Assembly: GCA_017686895.1 (NCBI GenBank)
Contig: GCA_017686895.1_4521.1
DNA from: a phage
Length of the DNA stretch: 64,000 nucleotides
Direction: 5' to 3' (one strand)
Part shown: positions 53,524 to 63,286 of the stretch, piece by piece
Numbering within the stretch: position 1 is the first letter of the stretch
How the letters are laid out: the number at the start of each line of letters is the position of its first letter
The notes under the pieces: model-generated
The model's database searches: none
What the model saw: the letters and a program-made list of their open reading frames with translations, nothing else
What the model was told of the DNA's origin: nothing
Position numbers and translations under genes: made by a program

Positions 53524-53531
53524 TATTTATA
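53524..53531 (-). promoter_or_regulatory. late promoter TATAAATA upstream of holin t
   Basis: TATAAATA on - strand, followed by GGAGG SD and ATG at 53504. Confidence 0.5.
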
Positions 53532-53549: not shown

Positions 53550-54329
53550 TTAAATCCAGGAGCCGTAGATTGTGCCTGTAGCACCCCATGACGGTGAACT
53601 TCCGAATACTGCTCTGCCAGGAGCACCACCGCCAGATCTAGATAAGTGATTACCCCATCCATCTCCGCCACGACCTCCAGCATCACCGCCATTGCCTCCG
53701 CCGAATTGGGAAGTGTAACCGGCCCCGCCCGGGGCGTCATAACTAGCATTACCACCCGGCCAATTAACGCCACCTCCGCCGATGCCAAATGGTCTACCAC
53801 CACCGCCACCTGCTGTAGCATTTGGCGCCCAGCTATTCTGTAATGACACTGCACCACCTCCGCCACCGCCTGATGCAATAACACCATAGTTCCAAATACG
53901 AAGTCTTCCGCCGATATCATTTTGGATTACATCGCCACCATTAGTGCCTGGGTTTCCGTTTACAGTACCGTTACCACCTCGTCCCCACATATGAACTCCA
54001 CCATGAATATTCAAAGTAACATATTCATTTGGCGTATCGCCATACATAAAGAATAATGGAACATCTTTACTATATGATACTAAATTTCCAGTGATATTAA
54101 ACACTATAGGTGCACTACCTGCCTCAAAACATCTATCTCGGAACCATTGACCATTGAAGTTATGGTCTGCTCCAAGTGTGTGAATAATCTCACGAGACCG
54201 ACCAGCAAATTGCGACATTGATACCGGTAGTCCCAATCTTAACTGTCCAGCCGCTGCAGACATCAATCGCTGGCCTGTTTCAGCCACTGCTGATGTTCCA
54301 ATCCAACCAGGAATTCCTACTACTGCCAT
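53550..54329 (-). CDS. 38: tail fibre adhesin gp38 (T2-type, glycine-rich motifs)
   Basis: Several poly-Gly motifs ([38 protein letters not shown]) separated by variable segments; directly downstream of gene 37. Confidence 0.75.
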
Positions 54330-54341
54330 AAAAACCTCCAG

Positions 54342-54355
54342 GGCCCGAAGGCCCT
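54342..54355 (-). other. GC hairpin between genes 37 and 38
   Basis: gggcc-ttcg-ggccc on - strand just upstream of gene 38 SD. Confidence 0.35.
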
Positions 54356-54358
54356 TTA

Positions 54359-57300
54359 TTATAATAATGATTTAATTAATGCTTTCAATTCAGCAATTTC
54401 AGATTTCAATTCCTTGATTTCGTCAGTATGCTCGTTGATAGTAGCAGTATTTAAACCGATAATACCGTTATAGTTTAAACGAAGTAAGCCGGTCTCTTTA
54501 TCTTCAGAAACAAGTTCAGGTAATACTTCTTGAACTTCCTGAGCAATTAAACCTGCGGACGGTTTAACTTCGTCTGTAACAGAGTTTTTAAGCAGATAAG
54601 TATAACCGCCCAATAGTTTAGATTTCTCTTGGGCATTCTCTATAAGCTTAATTTCTGACTTACAACGAATATCAGAACGAATATAAACGTCGTTAACATC
54701 GATGTTATCACGAACATACATACCTGCATTACAGTGGAAGTTAACATCACCGAATGTCTGAGCTAAACCAGGTCTAAAACTAAACACACCTTGGCCGTTT
54801 GCATATGCGTTGAAAATACCATCGTTTTCCCAAAGCAAACCGGTATCGTTATCTCCCAGTACAATACACGGCCCGGCCCATGCAGGGTCACCGCCGCCTG
54901 CTGATACTCTGCCGCTCTTAAGTAAGCTAGGGGCATAAAAAACACCATTATGATGGAATTCATAGATGGCTTGGGGGTCAGAACCGTTTTCCTGGTTACC
55001 TACACGAATAATACCTTGTGCCCAGGTATTAGTAATGCGTTGCATACCAAAATCTACGCCGGATACGTATCCTTCGTTAGTAATACCGGATTTTCCTTTA
55101 ATAATAGGATAATAACTATCATTACCGACATTACCAAAATCTACAAATATAGGAGCTTCTTGGCGCCATTGGTTAGCCCAGTCACCGCCCTGGTGTGCGG
55201 TCCATTGTGTACCGTTTATATGGAGGCGGTCTCTATTAAAATTAAATGTTCCTTGGCCTTGAGGAGAAAGCGATATTTCACCGTTAGTTGTTATGTATAC
55301 ACCGCCTTGTGTAATGTAACTGTAAAAACCTAGACCATTGTCGGCACCGCCTTTACCAATATACCAATTATTGGCCCCGGCCGTATCAGAACGAATAAAT
55401 GATGAATCACTGGCCAAAGGAGGATTAAGAACTATTCCAGCAGCATCTTTATTAATCCAAAGAGTGCCGGTCATCGTATCACCTTCTTTGGCAACACGAG
55501 TAGCTATTGCGTCGCGAATATTAGTTACGTCGCCTGCAGAAGTAAACGTTTTCCAAATATCCGAGAAAATATTACCATTACGAGCAATAGCAGCTTCACC
55601 ACCACCGACCAGAACGTTATCTGGGAAGTTAACAGTACCGTCTTGATTAAAACGAGATGTATGTCCTTGAGTTCCGTCTTCTTTTAAATGATGAATAACA
55701 AATGTGCCTGAATTAATTTCAGTGCCTAAAGACCAAACGGCTTTACCATTTAAAAACTTCTGTTTAACAATAGGATAATATTTGCTTACAGCATCGTCAT
55801 CGATTTCCTGGAAAATAGGAGCCGCTTGAGCATATTGAATATCATAACCGCCGGCACCCGCTCCATGGCCAACAAATTTAATATAGCCGTTCGCAGTGAT
55901 CGTATTGTATTTTGATTGTAAATCTGGAATAGTAACTTTACCAGTATCTAAAGCCATACTAAACGGGCGAAGTGGACCGATATCGCCGTGTTTACCTTCA
56001 CCGTAAGCAGTTGGAATAATATGAAGACTATCTTCTGAACGTCTAAAAATAGCTCCATAATCTGCGTTCCAAATACGAAGAGCATTCACTTCTCCAGATG
56101 AAATTTCACCTGTTGTGTGAACTCCTCTATCTCCAGCAGTAACACCAGATGATTCAAATGAGCCATTAACGTTCATTTCTACTTCGCCAGTAGTAAGTCT
56201 TTGAATATAGCTCATCCAGCTAGTTGCATCAGAAATTTCCATAATGTTTTTACGGATACCTCCGCTTGGATCAACAAACGTATTACCCCAAACTTTAATA
56301 TCCATATTATCAACCGAGCTGTATCCTGTTGTGTTGCCTCTAAACATTAGTGTAGAAGAATTATTTCTACCATCTATATTAACAGAACCGCCAATAACAT
56401 CAATATTACCAGGAGTAACCAACAAACCGCCATGAGTATTAATGTTTGTGGTACCCTTACCACGGAAATAGTGATGATAGTTACCGCCTTGATAATATCC
56501 CAAAAGAGTCTGACCATCTCCAAACGCGTTATTATCGTGATATGTCACAACAGTAGCAAGAGCATAGTTTTCAGTTGGAGGAGTAGTTAAATCGGCTCCA
56601 TTAGTAGAATATCCAGCTACAAATTTTCTTAGGCTAGTTGTTTCGCTAGGATTAAATAAAAACGTTTTTGTTCCATTATTAACGCTGAAATAATATCCGT
56701 CTTGATGCCATTTAAATCCAGTATCATTATCCCCAAGAACAATAGAACCTTTACCTAAGGTTGAATATGTCATAGGCCCTGATTCCATACCTACTGCAAT
56801 CGAATGGCCTGCTTGAAAACCGCCGGAATAAGCAAAAGATAACATATAATCAGTAGGGGTTGAACCAGAATACCAACTGATGCCGTTGTTTTCACAAATT
56901 TCATGGAGCATTGCGGCCGCTGGGTCGGTACGTACAACACGTAAATTATTTTTATCTGTATTAGAATTATTATTTGCTAATGAATAGATGTCATAATCAC
57001 CTGCCTTCTTCCCGTCTGTAATGACTTTGTCAGTCAAAATCTGAGGAGTTGACATAGATTTCCATGCCGATACTTCAGGTGAAATAAATTGTCCACTGCC
57101 TGAAAATGCATAGGTGCTTTCGCTACCAGCTGCGTAGTCTTGAACTCTAATATTAATTACTTGTGTAGTTAATCCATCATTAGCAGGAGAAAAAATGATT
57201 CCACGTTCACGGTCAGCTGAATCATGAAAACGAACATGTGATGTACCTGAACTTTTTGTAATAAGTTCTCCGCCTTCAGTCATAATCTGCCCAGCGGCAA

Positions 57301-57595
57301 TAATATCGCGAGTTACTCGAGCAATACCAGTTAAATTAAAATTACCAGTCTGAGTGAAGACGCCATTTAAAGTATAATCACCAGTTTGATTATAGTTTCC
57401 TATATGAATAACATTCCCGTCAATACTACCACCCTTAGCAAAACCAAGATCAATGATATTTCCTTGGTCGTCTTTAGTAAAAAGTACGCGGTCTTTTAAG
57501 TTTATAGCCAATTCACCTTCGGCTAATACTGAAGCGGCAGGACGTGCTCCTGCAGTTTTGCTTCTTTTAAATTGTATTTGTTTTAAAGTAGCCAT
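54359..57595 (-). CDS. 37: long tail fibre distal subunit gp37 with C-terminal intramolecular chaperone domain
   Basis: 1078 aa; C-terminus [15 protein letters not shown]...[15 protein letters not shown] resembles self-cleaving S74 chaperone domain; synteny 34-35-36-37-38. Confidence 0.88.
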
Positions 57596-58286: not shown

Positions 58287-58294
58287 TATTTATA
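58287..58294 (-). promoter_or_regulatory. late promoter TATAAATA upstream of gene 36
   Basis: TATAAATA on - strand between hairpin after gene 35 and gene 36 SD. Confidence 0.5.
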
Positions 58295-58319: not shown

Positions 58320-59444
58320 TTATTCTGTGTACTCTTTAAATTCCTGCCCAAATACCTTACCTGTGTCGTTAGATAACTGAGTAGGCAAGTCCATTATATC
58401 ATTACCGGTTAATGATTCATCGATGTAATTAGCACGAATACCATTTAGGCCAAACTCGGCAGGTTTTGCTATACTTCCGTTACATGATACTTCAGTGAAA
58501 ATAACATTTCTTAGTCCACCTTGACCGACTGGGACCGTACGGTAACAATATACTGTAAAGCCATCGGCTTCAGCTGGTATTTCAACGTATTCTTCATATA
58601 GCTTCCACACTCCAGCAGTTCCGTCAAAGTTTATATCTTTAGATGATATAGGAGAGCTAGATGGAGACTTAAAGAAACGAATTGAAAGTCTTGTGGTTCC
58701 TTCCTCTAATAATTCTTCATCAGCCATTAATTGAAATTTCAAATAAAGAAAATCTGTAGGCTTTAATCCATAGTTTGCGATAGGAGTAACAAGGGATGAT
58801 GTAGGCATCCTTTTTATTTCATTGTTAGTTCCTCCAACAGGAGATAAAAACGTTTCTAGAGCTTCATATGTACGTCTAGGATAGCCGGTAGCACCTATAT
58901 CAGCAATAGAGTCATATACAATATCTAATGGAGTTGAGTAATCAGAAATTGTTTTCTTATTACTGTATTTTATGTGTTCTAATGCAATAGTATTTTTACC
59001 TGAAACATAAAACGCCGAATATGAAATATCAACAAGACTAGCAACTTCAATTGACGGTATAACTGAACTCCCAGCAGCTTTAAACCATTCAATTATTTCT
59101 GGCGGCAAATTAAATTTGTTATTAGAAATAAATGCGAAAATGAAATTATCTGCGTATGTATTAACAAACGAAATAAATGCAGCTGAAGTTGCATTATTTG
59201 TAGGCGCAAAATTGTATAATTTACTATCAACTATAGTTCCATTTTCCGGATTTATTACCCTAACATTTAGTCCAATACCAAAAGACTGCAACCCTAAAGG
59301 CTCATTTTGGAACAAAATATACGGATTAGTTGTTGAAAGCGGGCATGAACCCGCTATACTTAGTTTAAATCTAACTGAATTGCTTTCCGATAAAAACGGC
59401 GTTTGGACGTATCCCTGTCCAAACCTTGCCATAAATTTTTCCAT
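58320..59444 (-). CDS. 35: long tail fibre hinge protein gp35
   Basis: 374 aa between 34 and 36; size and position as T4 gp35. Confidence 0.8.
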   Translation of the reverse strand: MEKFMARFGQGYVQTPFLSESNSVRFKLSIAGSCPLSTTNPYILFQNEPLGLQSFGIGLNVRVINPENGTIVDSKLYNFAPTNNATSAAFISFVNTYADNFIFAFISNNKFNLPPEIIEWFKAAGSSVIPSIEVASLVDISYSAFYVSGKNTIALEHIKYSNKKTISDYSTPLDIVYDSIADIGATGYPRRTYEALETFLSPVGGTNNEIKRMPTSSLVTPIANYGLKPTDFLYLKFQLMADEELLEEGTTRLSIRFFKSPSSSPISSKDINFDGTAGVWKLYEEYVEIPAEADGFTVYCYRTVPVGQGGLRNVIFTEVSCNGSIAKPAEFGLNGIRANYIDESLTGNDIMDLPTQLSNDTGKVFGQEFKEYTE

Positions 59445-59452
59445 ATAACCTC

Positions 59453-62400
59453 TTATTCAACCCATATAAATTTAACTGTTTTGTTAACCGGGTCTGGAAC
59501 AATTCTCACATTTCCTAATTGTAAGAAGTCTCGAACAGTAAGGTTTCCAATAACAGCATTATCAGATGGGATAGCACCGACATCGCTAGGTGAAGGTGGG
59601 TTGCCACTATCAAATACCATTGCAAATGAAGTCCAAGCATCTTTATTTTTCTGCCAGGTACGAGTATATCGAATACTACCACCATTTGCACCTGTAGGAT
59701 AACAAATCCAATCCTGATAAAGCGAATCTAAGCTATTGCCGAATTGAGTCAAAGTACCAGGATATTTAATTTCTTGGTCACGGTTACCTTTGTTATCACG
59801 CGTCCAGTATCCAGGGAATTGGCTATATACGGCAGAATCGTTAATGTCAATAGACCAAAAACCTACAGTAGAAGCTGTTGGTTTATCGGTATAAACCGTG
59901 GCAGTTTTAACGCCGTTAGAAATAATCCTGTTATTTACAGTTAACCCACCGGTAGTTATTGTTGCACCACTTGTGATTTGAACACCGTTGTCAAGACGAA
60001 CTAGGCCTGTGGCATTGTTAATCGTGATCGGGCGTAAGTTATTAAACGTCCCGGTCTGGTCACCTGAGTTAGTTAATGCAATATAAGAACTGTCACCAGC
60101 ATTATAAAGCATAACACCATAGTTACCGTTAATAGCTCTGAATGCAATAGGAGAACTAGAAACAATTTCGCCTGTAGCACTAATAGGCCCGGTAAATGTA
60201 GAAACACCTGTAACATTTAATCCATTTGTAGAAACAATACCTGTTGAATAAAGTGTTCCATTAATATTAAATGATACTTTATTATCAGAAGCGCGCTGAG
60301 AATAGAAATGGTATCCGGTTTCGTCACCCGCTTCAAATACTGTATCACGGGCACCATCTGTAGCGCTATTACCCCATGCTCTAACAACGAAATTCTCTTT
60401 ATTACTAAGAGATTGGGTTCCTTTAGTGAAAACTATTTCGGAACCGCTAGAGTCATTAAGAGTTAATCTACGAGTAACAGATGCTTCGGAACCAAAAGAA
60501 GCAGTGCTTGTAGATACTAAAGGAGCACTCAGGTTGGTCTGTTTAGTAAGACTTAAAGAACCATTAACCGTCTGGTCGATGTCTCTACGGATGAACTGAA
60601 GAGAATCTAGACCATCTAACAGATTACTATCTACGGCTTTAGCTTTCAATGGTAAGTAGTTAGCAAGTACACGGTTTAATTCATATGGAGAAATAGCATA
60701 ACTATTTTTCTCATAAAGATTCAGGTCCTGGGTACTACCTTGAGTATCGTCACCAACGAATGTAATAGAACCGGATGAAGTTTTAACGAATCCGCGAATT
60801 GCTGTAGTAGCAGCCCATGTTGGTTCATCCTGGACAATCCATTTTAAATTCTTAGGCGATACAGCAGTATTAGCAGAAGTTCCTGTTACAGTTTCAGCCT
60901 GAGTAGCAACCTTAATTACACCTTCAGATGTTTCAGTGGACTTAGTCCCTAAAAGCTTTTTAGGAGTAATAAGAACATCATCTAAAGTTCCTGCATTAGA
61001 TTCTGCCTGGGTCGCTACACGAAGTGTACCACGTTGTGTTTCATTTGCTTTAGAAATATCAAGAGTATAATGGTTCCACAAGGTTCCTTCTTCAATAAGT
61101 CCGGAATCAGAATTAACACTGGTACGGTCAGAAGAATCAAAATGAGTTTTAATTTTCAGTGGAGACGAGATACGAGTATCGTCAGTTCCAGTATCAAATT
61201 CAACTTGCGTAGCAATTTCGGCTATGCCGGATAATCCTTCCGTAGCTTTCCTATCATTTAACGTCTTAGGCGTTACTGCTCTAGTATAATCAGTTCCAGT
61301 GTTAGTTTCTGCTTGCGTAGCAATTTCAATTAAACCAATACGTCCATCAGTAGAAGTTTTCTTATGCAGAGTTTCAGGAGTCACTACAGCATTAGCCCAA
61401 CCGGTTTGTGATTCACCAGCGATAACTTCACTTTCAATAGCAAGAATTACTGCGCCCTGTTGAGTAGGGGTAGCTTTATACTGGTCAAGAGCCTTTGGAG
61501 AAATAGTTAAATTATCTACGGCTTTGTTATAAACGTTAGTCCCAGCATTACCACGAACAGTAGCCGCTGTAGTACCAGTCGTAGATGTGTATTTTACAAT
61601 ACCAGATAAAACTTCAGAACCTTGACGGGCATCCAATTTCTTAGGAGTAATAATAGTGGTATCATCTATGCCAGCATTAGTTTCATCCTGAGTTGCAACT
61701 TCAGCAACACCTCTACGGGTTTCAGTTGCTGTACGTTCGTTCAATTTCTTAGGAGAAATAATCAAGTCGTCTTGGAATGCAAAATCGGTATTCTGGTTAA
61801 CTTGTGCAGTTGTTGCAATTCGAGCAATACCACGACGAGTTTCAGTTGCTGTACGATTTGCTAATGTTTCCGGAGTAATAGCCAGTTCTTTACCAGGAGC
61901 ATTTTCTAAATCAACATTTGCTTGCGCTTGAGAAGCAAGAGCAATAACACCTAAACGAGCTCGAGTGGTATTGCTCGATGCATCGACTCGTTCGACGGTT
62001 ACGGTGTTTTGTTGAACTACCCAATATTTTGTTTCAGATGAATAATCTTCTATATAAGCTAACTCAAGTACAGGTACATACGAAGTATCACCATTAAATT
62101 CCAGCTCACTAACAGAAACCCATTGTGCATCAGGTGGATACTCTGAACGTTTTGGGAACTGTAATAAAGAAATACTGCTAGCAATTGTATCGCCTTCAGC
62201 AGCTTTAATTTTTACAGTTTGCCCTTTACGCATATAATTCAACGATATTTTAACAGTATCACCAGACAAAATATCTGTAGGCAAAGTAAGATTTACCGTC
62301 GAGATTGTATCATTATTAGTTCCAAAAACAAGAACTTCTTCATTAGGGCGTAAATCAGTATCATTACGAACTATACGTAAACGAGATTTCTGGTCACCTT

Positions 62401-63286
62401 CCCAAACACGCCATAAGCTATTAGCAGAATCATAAACAAAGAATGCTTCTGCAGTATTACGTCCTTCTGCTACATGAACACCGGCTTCTCGTATAGAAGT
62501 TGTATCATCGTAAGTTTTGACAATTGTGTGATATAACGGGTTTAATTTGTCTAAATCAACTAAATTAATAATATCGCCATTATTAGCATTGCGAGGCAAT
62601 GTAATATTAATAGGAGCGGCTGATGTAAAACGTCGAATGATAAAATCGTTAGGTTGCGCCTGATATGGCTTAGCAGGAGTTACTGTGACTGCATTACGTT
62701 CGTAATCAGAAACATACATTTGCCATAGGCGGTTGCTAAAAATGAAGACCATTTTAGATTTTGGGTGCGTCATTAAAACTGAACGAACCTGTTGTCCTCT
62801 AAAGTTTACAATACTTTGAGCCTCTGCAGTAATTTGAACTTTTACATAGCCTACTCTACCGCCAATATCAGACAAAATAACTGTATCGCCATTTAAAGGA
62901 TTTTTAGGCAAAGTGAAATTAATATCAGTGCCAGCTGAAGTATCAACCGCAATAGAGTTACCTACTGATAATTGGAAATCTCCGCCTTGAACTGTAATCC
63001 ATTCTGCATCTGTACGAGTTGCCTTCCATTTAGCCAAAGAGAAAGGGCCCGCCGGAGCTGGAATATCACTTAAAGCTTGATAAAAACGATTATCATAAAG
63101 AACAATAAAATCTTTTGTATACGCGCGCGTATCGTCATAATTCTGTACGGTGTTTTCTTGCACCAAAAAGTCAACGTTCACGCCATCGGTGCCAACTGTG
63201 CGGTCAGCAAGCGCAACGTTAACTATCTTATCACCGCCTGCGTCAAGACCATCTTCGGCCCTGAACTTACGTTTGATGTCAACCAT
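59453..63286 (-). CDS. 34: long tail fibre proximal subunit gp34
   Basis: 1277 aa; internal repeats of ATQAETN(T/A)GTD...TPK(K/T)L type; late promoter upstream. Confidence 0.92.
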   Translation of the reverse strand: MVDIKRKFRAEDGLDAGGDKIVNVALADRTVGTDGVNVDFLVQENTVQNYDDTRAYTKDFIVLYDNRFYQALSDIPAPAGPFSLAKWKATRTDAEWITVQGGDFQLSVGNSIAVDTSAGTDINFTLPKNPLNGDTVILSDIGGRVGYVKVQITAEAQSIVNFRGQQVRSVLMTHPKSKMVFIFSNRLWQMYVSDYERNAVTVTPAKPYQAQPNDFIIRRFTSAAPINITLPRNANNGDIINLVDLDKLNPLYHTIVKTYDDTTSIREAGVHVAEGRNTAEAFFVYDSANSLWRVWEGDQKSRLRIVRNDTDLRPNEEVLVFGTNNDTISTVNLTLPTDILSGDTVKISLNYMRKGQTVKIKAAEGDTIASSISLLQFPKRSEYPPDAQWVSVSELEFNGDTSYVPVLELAYIEDYSSETKYWVVQQNTVTVERVDASSNTTRARLGVIALASQAQANVDLENAPGKELAITPETLANRTATETRRGIARIATTAQVNQNTDFAFQDDLIISPKKLNERTATETRRGVAEVATQDETNAGIDDTTIITPKKLDARQGSEVLSGIVKYTSTTGTTAATVRGNAGTNVYNKAVDNLTISPKALDQYKATPTQQGAVILAIESEVIAGESQTGWANAVVTPETLHKKTSTDGRIGLIEIATQAETNTGTDYTRAVTPKTLNDRKATEGLSGIAEIATQVEFDTGTDDTRISSPLKIKTHFDSSDRTSVNSDSGLIEEGTLWNHYTLDISKANETQRGTLRVATQAESNAGTLDDVLITPKKLLGTKSTETSEGVIKVATQAETVTGTSANTAVSPKNLKWIVQDEPTWAATTAIRGFVKTSSGSITFVGDDTQGSTQDLNLYEKNSYAISPYELNRVLANYLPLKAKAVDSNLLDGLDSLQFIRRDIDQTVNGSLSLTKQTNLSAPLVSTSTASFGSEASVTRRLTLNDSSGSEIVFTKGTQSLSNKENFVVRAWGNSATDGARDTVFEAGDETGYHFYSQRASDNKVSFNINGTLYSTGIVSTNGLNVTGVSTFTGPISATGEIVSSSPIAFRAINGNYGVMLYNAGDSSYIALTNSGDQTGTFNNLRPITINNATGLVRLDNGVQITSGATITTGGLTVNNRIISNGVKTATVYTDKPTASTVGFWSIDINDSAVYSQFPGYWTRDNKGNRDQEIKYPGTLTQFGNSLDSLYQDWICYPTGANGGSIRYTRTWQKNKDAWTSFAMVFDSGNPPSPSDVGAIPSDNAVIGNLTVRDFLQLGNVRIVPDPVNKTVKFIWVE

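Follow-up and report, generated by a model that had tools for sequence, protein, structure and literature searches.

The stretch of phage DNA analysed here (64,000 nucleotides; hereafter, the window) very probably carries a receptor-binding tip module of the T2/S16 type, belonging to the long tail fibre of a T-even, Mosigvirus-like phage and operating by the mechanism set out below, binding to the porin OmpF included. The module as such is textbook material, well studied and already public, and the gp37 and gp38 proteins have both been deposited in NCBI; the exact gp38 product had no record in the contig index, though the protein itself is present in NCBI. Direct observations comprise the genes with their domains and catalytic residues, a predicted fold, and near-identity to relatives that have been characterised.

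Both open reading frames lie on the minus strand, at the coordinates given in a preliminary description of this DNA: gp37 (1078 aa) at 54359-57595 and gp38 (259 aa) at 53550-54329. According to Pfam, they are part of a syntenic gp34-gp35-gp36-gp37-gp38-t block, with gp34, gp35 and gp36 upstream and the holin gene t downstream. gp38 directly follows a gp37 with a C-terminal Peptidase_S74 (S74) domain and precedes t, an order common to T2, T6, S16 and fPS-2. The features referred to in the text are the following.

58287..58294, minus strand: late promoter motif (T4-type) TATAAATA, upstream of gp36 (motif match, fPS-2 annotation)
54677..57595, minus strand: mature part of gp37, residues 1-973, ~104.8 kDa, distal half-fibre subunit (ORF; PHROG 1699)
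54359..54676, minus strand: C-terminal chaperone/Peptidase_S74 domain of gp37, residues 974-1078, 105 aa, 11.6 kDa, plus stop codon (PF13884)
54341..54354, minus strand: putative RNA hairpin GGGCC-UUCG-GGCCC, located after the gp37 stop and ahead of the gp38 Shine-Dalgarno sequence (sequence, fold)
54204..54329, minus strand: N-terminal attachment domain of gp38, residues 1-42 (Pfam Gp38_N, AlphaFold2 helices, Trp survey)
54170..54510, minus strand: recombination patch, ~340 nt, spanning ~50 codons at the end of gp37 and ~50 at the start of gp38 (sliding 50-nt identity)
53550..54203, minus strand: beta-helix and PGII sandwich receptor-binding domain of gp38, residues 43-259, plus stop codon (Pfam GP38, PDB, fold)
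53524..53531, minus strand: late promoter motif TATAAATA, after gp38 and before the holin gene t (motif match, fPS-2 annotation)

The gp37 chaperone domain and the gp38 adhesin

gp37 matches the family of long tail fibre distal subunits, PHROG 1699 (E 0), and its S74 domain comprises the last 105 residues, at the extreme C-terminus. The Pfam Peptidase_S74 match (PF13884) spans residues 974-1029 with an E-value of 4.5e-12 and 46.5 bits, the curated cut-off being 22 bits, and contains both motifs that the preliminary description had quoted when it proposed an S74-like chaperone at this end of the protein. A Ser974/Lys979 dyad is found in the sequence SDIRCK, where the serine opens the domain and the lysine follows at +5, as in the SDxRxK motif; the same spacing is seen in T5 pb1 (S1264/K1269) and MYRF (S578/K583). 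The predicted scissile bond is R973^S974 in the context DVYIR^SD. Published gp37 cleavage sites read DVYIR^SD in the fPS phages and DLNVS^SD in S16, and the VYIR^SDIR context is conserved in T2 gp37. Alignment with S74 domains, suggested beforehand as a check, thus found that the dyad is kept and so is the cleavage context known from the literature, along with a match to the gp37 tip and chaperone chain of S16 (6F45_A) at E 8.8e-30. The tip sequence, which ends with R973, is identical in seven phages. By analogy with S16 and T2, the chaperone would be released autoproteolytically after trimerisation. Such a release was reportedly described for T2 gp37 by Drexler et al. in 1986.

The chaperones of endosialidase and T5 pb1 belong to the same Pfam family, sit at the C-terminus of trimeric fibres and likewise show Ser...Lys(+5) at the domain start. 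In contrast with gp37, what precedes their S74 domain is a different receptor-binding or enzymatic domain, whereas removal of S74 in the window would expose the place where a separate adhesin docks.

The candidate adhesin, gp38, matches the Pfam models GP38 (PF05268; E 3.8e-83, 279.1 bits) and Gp38_N (PF21721; E 8.7e-16, 58.1 bits), each with a curated cut-off of 25 bits, as well as PHROG 2056 (E 2.2e-106). Sequence matches in the PDB were 9V85 (3e-73) and 6F45_D (4e-45), the gp38 structures of PP01 and S16, respectively. An AlphaFold2 model of gp38, predicted as a monomer with a pLDDT of 90.6, shows the same three-part fold as 6F45_D and 9V85, that is, a helical attachment domain, a beta-helix and a polyglycine (PGII) sandwich, and a fold search with this model returned only 9V85 (TMt 0.93, rmsd 1.3) and 6F45_D (TMq 0.83) as significant PDB matches. 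Judged from the sequence comparisons, the family matches reflect homology and not chance. The view of gp38 as a T2-type adhesin, originally taken from the letters alone, is therefore upheld by both Pfam gp38 models, the PDB matches and the predicted fold.

Glycine makes up 25% of gp38 overall and 35% of residues 111-259, with runs at 154-159, 174-178, 184-187, 210-212 and 233-235 and numerous GG pairs besides; the stretch that holds the conserved Gly-rich motifs and the variable loops covers approximately residues 116-240 (53610-53984). In an alignment of 73 homologues, the Gly runs sit on invariant columns and what lies between them varies, which agrees with the poly-Gly motifs and intervening variable segments noticed earlier in this 259-aa protein. 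An architecture of Gly motifs and hypervariable segments has been described for gp38 (PMC3157838). Counts of Gly runs are in themselves weak evidence (in 2.6% of shuffles, this Gly-rich protein still has three runs of ≥4 Gly), and the case for gp38 therefore rests on homology.

Among known systems, T2 has the same gene order, and its proteins share the Pfam architecture of those in the window, with a C-terminal Peptidase_S74 domain in gp37 and Gp38_N plus GP38 in gp38. Combined with a gp38 fold that matches only gp38 adhesins, this sustains the original claim of a T2-type module. The proposed alignment with T2 gp38 likewise confirmed homology, at 50% identity, the receptor-binding domain differing at 111 positions; T2 further differs in its receptor, FadL, and in a longer gp37 of 1341 aa. 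Similarly, Salmonella phage S16 (gp37-gp38, PDB 6F45) shows homology along all of gp38 as well as in the gp37 tip and chaperone, but is only 45-49% identical and targets Salmonella OmpC. In the structural model for S16, autocleavage of the chaperone is followed by docking of a monomeric gp38, which carries a PGII sandwich, by means of Trp prongs. For relatives, gp38 has been shown to sit at the virion fibre tip and to set the receptor.

The preliminary description had set this layout against that of T4, in which gp38 serves only as an assembly chaperone. We give hardly any credence to a T4-type arrangement in the window, with gp38 absent from the virion and the gp37 C-terminus binding the receptor. 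While many database records call close homologues "long tail fiber assembly chaperone/catalyst", these labels exist because of legacy naming from T4, to whose gp38 the window protein has no similarity (BLASTP E 1.9). In addition, T4 gp37 ends in Collar and fibre-repeat (Phage_fiber) domains without S74, in contrast with the S74 end of gp37 here, and gp38 matches solved adhesin structures. The contrast with T4 was thus well drawn.

Expression signals and proposed assembly

The motif TATAAATA has four exact matches in the window, three of which immediately precede gp34, gp36 and t, and the fPS-2 annotation has late promoters at the same positions. The copy upstream of gp36 probably drives a gp36-gp37-gp38 transcription unit. 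Between gp37 and the Shine-Dalgarno sequence of gp38 (GGAGG, 54335-54339), the wider 56-nt context of the putative hairpin gave a fold z-score of -0.80, which is not significant; the hairpin's sole support comes from relatives, which have one of different stem sequence at the same place.

By homology, we infer that gp37 is cleaved, that gp38 is present in virions and that it binds OmpF. In the pathway we propose, gp36, gp37 and gp38 would probably be co-transcribed late in infection, and gp37 would trimerise with the aid of its own C-terminal S74 chaperone domain. In the folded trimer, Ser974, activated by Lys979, would cut R973-S974, upon which the 105-residue chaperone would leave and expose a flat DVYIR tip. 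One gp38 monomer would dock on this tip via its three-helix N-terminal domain, and the distal polyglycine sandwich would present its hypervariable loops to a host outer-membrane porin, most likely OmpF.

The predicted receptor

OmpF is the likely receptor because the receptor-binding domain of gp38 is near-identical to that of RB51 gp38, which has been mapped experimentally to OmpF. Only three differences separate the two domains (R46V, I48V and N82D), all of them before residue 83; the hypervariable segments are identical, and Q208, the equivalent of RB51 Q206, is retained (53706-53708). The domain is also identical to that of other public gp38 proteins (0 differences from P0008) and differs at 2-6 positions from those of AlbertHofmann, fPS-2, FL31 and FL33. 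OmpF was identified for RB51 gp38 by genome-wide screens, and the substitution Q206L in HVS3 switches this protein from OmpF to OmpW (bioRxiv 10.64898/2026.04.02.716166). Dependence on OmpF has similarly been shown for the relatives AlbertHofmann/Bas47, fPS-2/fPS-90 and FL31/33/34, which are 95-96% identical, with partial TolC dependence in addition for the FL phages. These OmpF-type gp38 relatives sit on differing genomic backbones (Tequatrovirus, Mosigvirus). By analogy with relatives, the LPS core probably serves as a co-receptor.

Since a single HVS3 residue can switch OmpF to OmpW, the receptor prediction is strong but not absolute. Still, a receptor other than OmpF, be it another porin (OmpW, OmpC etc.) or LPS alone, strikes us as very improbable: the one substitution that moves RB51 to OmpW affects a position at which the window protein agrees with OmpF-binding RB51, as do all its hypervariable segments, and OmpF is required by four or more independent relatives whose receptor-binding domains are 95-100% identical to that of the window. 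PP01 gp38, the nearest protein with a solved structure, does bind OmpC, but it is only ~64% identical. PP01-like OmpC specificity, which we considered with PP01 being the best PDB match, was rejected on this figure compared with the 97-100% for OmpF-type adhesins. The sequence thus permits a prediction of OmpF use, and a single change at Q208 could retarget the phage. That the variable segments set host range, as had been suggested, finds support in experimental work published on near-identical proteins (PMC3157838; bioRxiv 10.64898/2026.04.02.716166).

A mosaic junction and the tryptophan prongs of gp38

The closest genome is that of Shigella phage Shf125875 (Mosigvirus), with 97.1-97.5% nucleotide identity over gp36-gp37-gp38-t and with a gp37 tip and most of the chaperone identical to the window. 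An assignment of the window to Tequatrovirus was rejected, as Shf125875 and AlbertHofmann, its nearest classified relatives, belong to Mosigvirus. Inside the patch at 54170..54510, sliding 50-nt identity is 96-100% to the Gaprivervirus phages ECML-359 and TH41 versus 52-92% to Shf125875, and megablast gave 98.7% identity to ECML-359/TH41 for the first 150 nt of gp38. The receptor-binding part of gp38 and the start of t show the reverse pattern, being nearer Shf125875 than ECML-359/TH41. On this comparison, a Gaprivervirus-like donor supplied the patch over the gp37 3' end and the gp38 5' end, and we see a clear case of cassette-like mosaicism because the breakpoints exactly flank the junction of gp37 chaperone and gp38 attachment domain. 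Where the window has this Gaprivervirus-like patch, Shf125875 has a gp38 N-terminus of the RB69/JS98-like subtype with W22 and W37; RB51, AlbertHofmann (Bas47), fPS-2/fPS-90 and FL31/33/34 carry other attachment-domain subtypes, with all three Trp.

The attachment helices predicted by AlphaFold2 (residues 10-18, 23-29 and 38-41) are preceded by W9 (54303-54305), L22 (TTG, 54264-54266) and S37 (TCA, 54219-54221). That is, gp38 of the window keeps one of three conserved Trp prongs, with L22 and S37 in place of the other two, whereas S16 gp38 keeps all three (W7, W20 and W35). The prongs are a characteristic described for S16 and not a formal criterion of the gp38 family; their loss does not affect homology, so family membership stands, while details of docking may differ. 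In a survey of 132 gp38 cluster representatives, position 22 was W in 124 of the 125 informative ones, and position 37 was W in 114, Y in 12, S in 2, N in 2 and A in 1. L22 is private to the window, and a single G>T change separates its codon from TGG. In ECML-359 and TH41, both isolated phages, gp38 has W22 and S37, and an independent, diverged lineage found in two sequencing runs, P0031, has S22 and S37 (codon TCA). W22 has been lost on an S37 background in two independent lineages, as L22 in the window and as S22 in P0031.

The N-terminal subtype, recognisable by the sequence GLPVSMSQF, is rare; exact-pattern scans for it with codon 22 left free had no matches in IMG/VR, JGI metagenomes or GTDB genomes. 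We put forward, as a tentative and rather doubtful reading, that this rare Gaprivervirus-like subtype, imported here, docks on the standard DVYIR tip with a single Trp prong.

With one of three prongs kept, docking of gp38 could be weaker or different. Loss of Trp after import of the domain might even lower fibre occupancy and leave adsorption poor or conditional, in line with the near-invariance of W22 and with an L22 that is private and a single G>T from TGG. The gp37 tip, moreover, is the same as in phages with a three-Trp gp38 and so shows no visible compensation, and the genome was taken from the assembly of a bacterium and not from a characterised phage isolate. We nonetheless hold such defective attachment to be decidedly unlikely, given that S37 is carried by isolated phages (ECML-359 and TH41), that position 37 varies (Y/S/N/A) in ~13% of representatives, that Leu is still hydrophobic and that the P0031 lineage with S22 and S37 suggests W22 to be dispensable in this subtype. 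An unlikely alternative of another kind is that L22 reflects a mistake made in sequencing or assembling the contig, whose assembly holds the NCBI record EHH5496362.1, and that the real protein has W22 as in ECML-359/TH41. The difference is indeed a single base (TTG versus TGG) within an otherwise 98.7%-identical 150-nt stretch, and was seen on one contig only; however, contigs assembled from short reads of a high-copy phage seldom carry substitution errors, and the second lineage without W22 arrived there through a two-base change.

Turning back to one-prong docking as our tentative reading, gp38 domains with two or even one Trp prong exist on an unchanged gp37 tip. Compatibility of the N-terminus with gp37 limits chimeric gp38 adhesins (PMC12892980), and variation in the Trp prongs matters for their engineering. 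If the reading is true, the rule of a Trp in each of three equivalent pockets would not be obligatory for joining a monomer to a trimer, and the gp37-gp38 interface would tolerate, or exploit, asymmetric docking.

A T2-type module within the long-tail-fibre block

The preliminary description had identified a gp37 gene, for the distal long-tail-fibre subunit, and a gp38 gene, for a T2-type adhesin at the fibre tip; both ORFs lie at exactly the coordinates it gave, on the minus strand. With gp34 (1277 aa), gp35 (374 aa) and gp36 (218 aa) upstream of gp37 and the T holin gene t (223 aa) downstream of gp38, all assigned by Pfam and PHROG matches, they form the canonical T-even block gp34-gp35-gp36-gp37-gp38-t.

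59453-63286, minus: gp34
58320-59444, minus: gp35, proximal hinge connector
54359-57595, minus: gp37, ORF of 1078 aa
53550-54329, minus: gp38, ORF of 259 aa
63321-63328, minus: TATAAATA T4 late promoter motif upstream of gp34
58287-58294, minus: the same motif upstream of gp36
53524-53531, minus: the same motif upstream of t
54341-54354, minus: tetraloop hairpin GGGCC-UUCG-GGCCC, gp37-gp38 intergenic, directly upstream of the gp38 Shine-Dalgarno

Exact TATAAATA motifs number four in the 64-kb window, below the shuffle expectation of 7.9, so it is their placement and not their number that is notable: three of the four are minus-strand motifs that sit just before gp34, gp36 and t. Given this placement and the late promoters annotated at the same places in the fPS-2 record, gp36-gp37-gp38 look like one late transcription unit. 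The intergenic hairpin, which may have a role in mRNA stability or translational coupling, has counterparts of other sequence at the same spot in relatives (GGGGC-TTT-GCCCC in fPS-2 and T6, GGGGG-AAAT-GCCCCC in FL33); the fold z-score of its wider context was not significant. As a side observation, gp35 matches Pfam ILEI ("Interleukin-like EMT inducer") barely over threshold (E 6.8e-07; 30.2 bits, cut-off 27), as does, weakly, its homologue on contig L026, which also carries the gp38 homologue P0031; the match probably reflects a shared small fold.

The proposed S74-type chaperone domain at the gp37 C terminus is borne out by a Pfam Peptidase_S74 match ("Chaperone of endosialidase") at residues 974-1029 (E 4.5e-12, 46.5 bits; curated cut-off 22 bits) and by alignment of residues 908-1077 with 6F45_A, which is gp37 in the S16 gp37-gp38 tip structure (E 8.8e-30). 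The domain starts with S974-D-I-R-C-K979, a Ser/Lys(+5) arrangement like the catalytic pairs described for T5 pb1 (Ser1264/Lys1269; PMC4690869), endosialidases and MYRF (S578/K583; PMC3742443). S974 is directly preceded by DVYIR. Salem et al. aligned fPS-2/-65/-90 with S16, whose site DLNVS^SD is known by experiment to be cleaved, and so predicted DVYIR^SD as their scissile site (PMC7917993). We thus infer autocleavage at R973^S974, with a predicted mature gp37 of 973 residues (104.8 kDa) and a released chaperone of 105 residues (11.6 kDa). Separately, gp37 residues 414-558 resemble a Gp34_trimer domain (E 3.8e-07) and align with the T4 gp34 structures 4UXE and 5NXF, which points to a module common to proximal and distal half-fibres.

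That gp38 is a glycine-rich T2-type adhesin is equally well founded. The Pfam hits are to GP38 (E 3.8e-83) and Gp38_N (E 8.7e-16), and the PHROG hit is to 2056, annotated as "tail fiber protein; host specificity". Both solved gp38 adhesins match as well, that of PP01 (9V85, E 3e-73) and that of S16 (6F45_D, E 4e-45). Using 73 homologues as input, AlphaFold2 returned a confident model (pLDDT 90.6, pTM 0.83), for which a Foldseek search of the PDB found only 9V85 (TM 0.93) and 6F45_D (TM 0.83) significant, the next match being at E 2.8. Residues 111-259 are 35% glycine, the Gly runs falling on family-invariant columns and the intervening segments being variable, which is the architecture described by Trojet et al. 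(PMC3157838).

The Pfam architecture of both proteins is identical to that of T2. In contrast, T4 gp37 combines Collar and fibre-repeat domains and lacks S74, while T4 gp38 has zero Pfam matches and no similarity to the gp38 studied here (E 1.9). The assignment as T2-type, not T4-type, is correct.

Relatives and candidate receptor

The system is well known, and its close relatives have already been dissected structurally and genetically; the earlier finding is real and its interpretation correct. NCBI already has entries for the two proteins, EHH5496362.1 ("receptor-recognizing protein") and EHH5496363.1; the 170,199-bp contig that encodes them is filed as Escherichia coli. A gp38 homologue is present in 757 phage records. 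The module shares 97.1-97.5% DNA identity with Shigella phage Shf125875, classified as Mosigvirus like AlbertHofmann, and the flanking 23.5 kb 97% with phages CCU7 and PECP20. Several gp38 proteins of near-identical sequence carry the names E. coli or Salmonella enterica in their records, and one homologue that of Bacillus cereus; their contigs of ~165-171 kb indicate complete T-even phage genomes inside bacterial isolate assemblies.

From residue 43 on, gp38 is identical to the public homologue P0008, one residue from EC128 and phiC120, and three (R46V, I48V, N82D, all N-terminal to the hypervariable region) from RB51/RB68. Genome-wide screens identified OmpF as the RB51 receptor, and the natural variant RB68 switches to OmpW through Q206L, in both mutagenesis directions (bioRxiv 10.64898/2026.04.02.716166); the Gln is retained here as Q208. 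The gp38 proteins of AlbertHofmann/Bas47, fPS-2/fPS-90 and FL31/33/34, with 2-6 differences from ours, belong to phages that depend on OmpF (PMC8594841), on OmpF and LPS core (PMC7917993), and on OmpF with a minor TolC effect (PMC12032242), respectively. Near-identity to RB51 with the Gln kept, together with the OmpF dependence of these relatives, strongly favours OmpF as the primary receptor.

A recombined attachment domain and its tryptophan prongs

~54170-54510, minus: recombination patch, by sliding identity
54264-54266, minus: gp38 codon 22, TTG (L22)
54219-54221, minus: gp38 codon 37, TCA (S37)

From ~54510 to 54170, a stretch that takes in ~50 codons at the end of the gp37 chaperone and ~50 at the start of gp38, sliding identity is 96-100% to ECML-359 and TH41, both Gaprivervirus phages, versus 52-92% to Shf125875. 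Upstream, in the adjacent chaperone region, Shf125875 reaches 100% and ECML-359/TH41 94-96%; downstream, the reversal likewise holds for the receptor-binding part of gp38 and the beginning of t, and the rest of the module follows Shf125875. At least four attachment-domain subtypes occur with this one OmpF-type receptor-binding domain. Patch and subtype mixing fit the known cassette-like evolution of the locus. The ECML-359 record lacks annotation of gp37 and gp38, and the TH41 record, marked "UNVERIFIED", has no annotation, yet intact gp37 and gp38 ORFs are present in both.

Three tryptophans have been described as prongs docking gp38 onto gp37. They are W7, W20 and W35 in S16, and in T2, T6, RB69-like and RB51-like gp38 align with our positions 9, 22 and 37, of which only W9 is kept, alongside L22 and S37. 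Each of these residues directly precedes one of three helices in the predicted model (10-18, 23-29, 38-41). A survey of 132 other cluster representatives finds Trp at position 22 in 124 of the 125 sequences that are informative there; position 37 is W in 114, Y in 12, S in 2, N in 2 and A in 1. As ECML-359 and TH41 also have S37, this residue was brought in with the patch.

A single G>T change, private to this sequence, gives L22, and scans of three contig collections returned no further copies of its N-terminal subtype. A base-calling error at codon 22 may account for L22. The only other sequence without W22, P0031 (S22 and S37, codon 22 TCA), is of the same S37 subtype at 19/150 nt divergence and comes from two sequencing runs. 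Prong loss may also weaken gp38 attachment. The S37-subtype phages share the last 18 residues of their mature gp37 tip with Shf125875, AlbertHofmann and JS98, in which gp38 carries all three prong tryptophans, and the gp37 side shows no compensating change. Our reading is that the rare S37 subtype either does not need the second and third prongs or makes up for them with other contacts. For engineers of gp38 chimeras, the loss of prong tryptophans is a minor lead.
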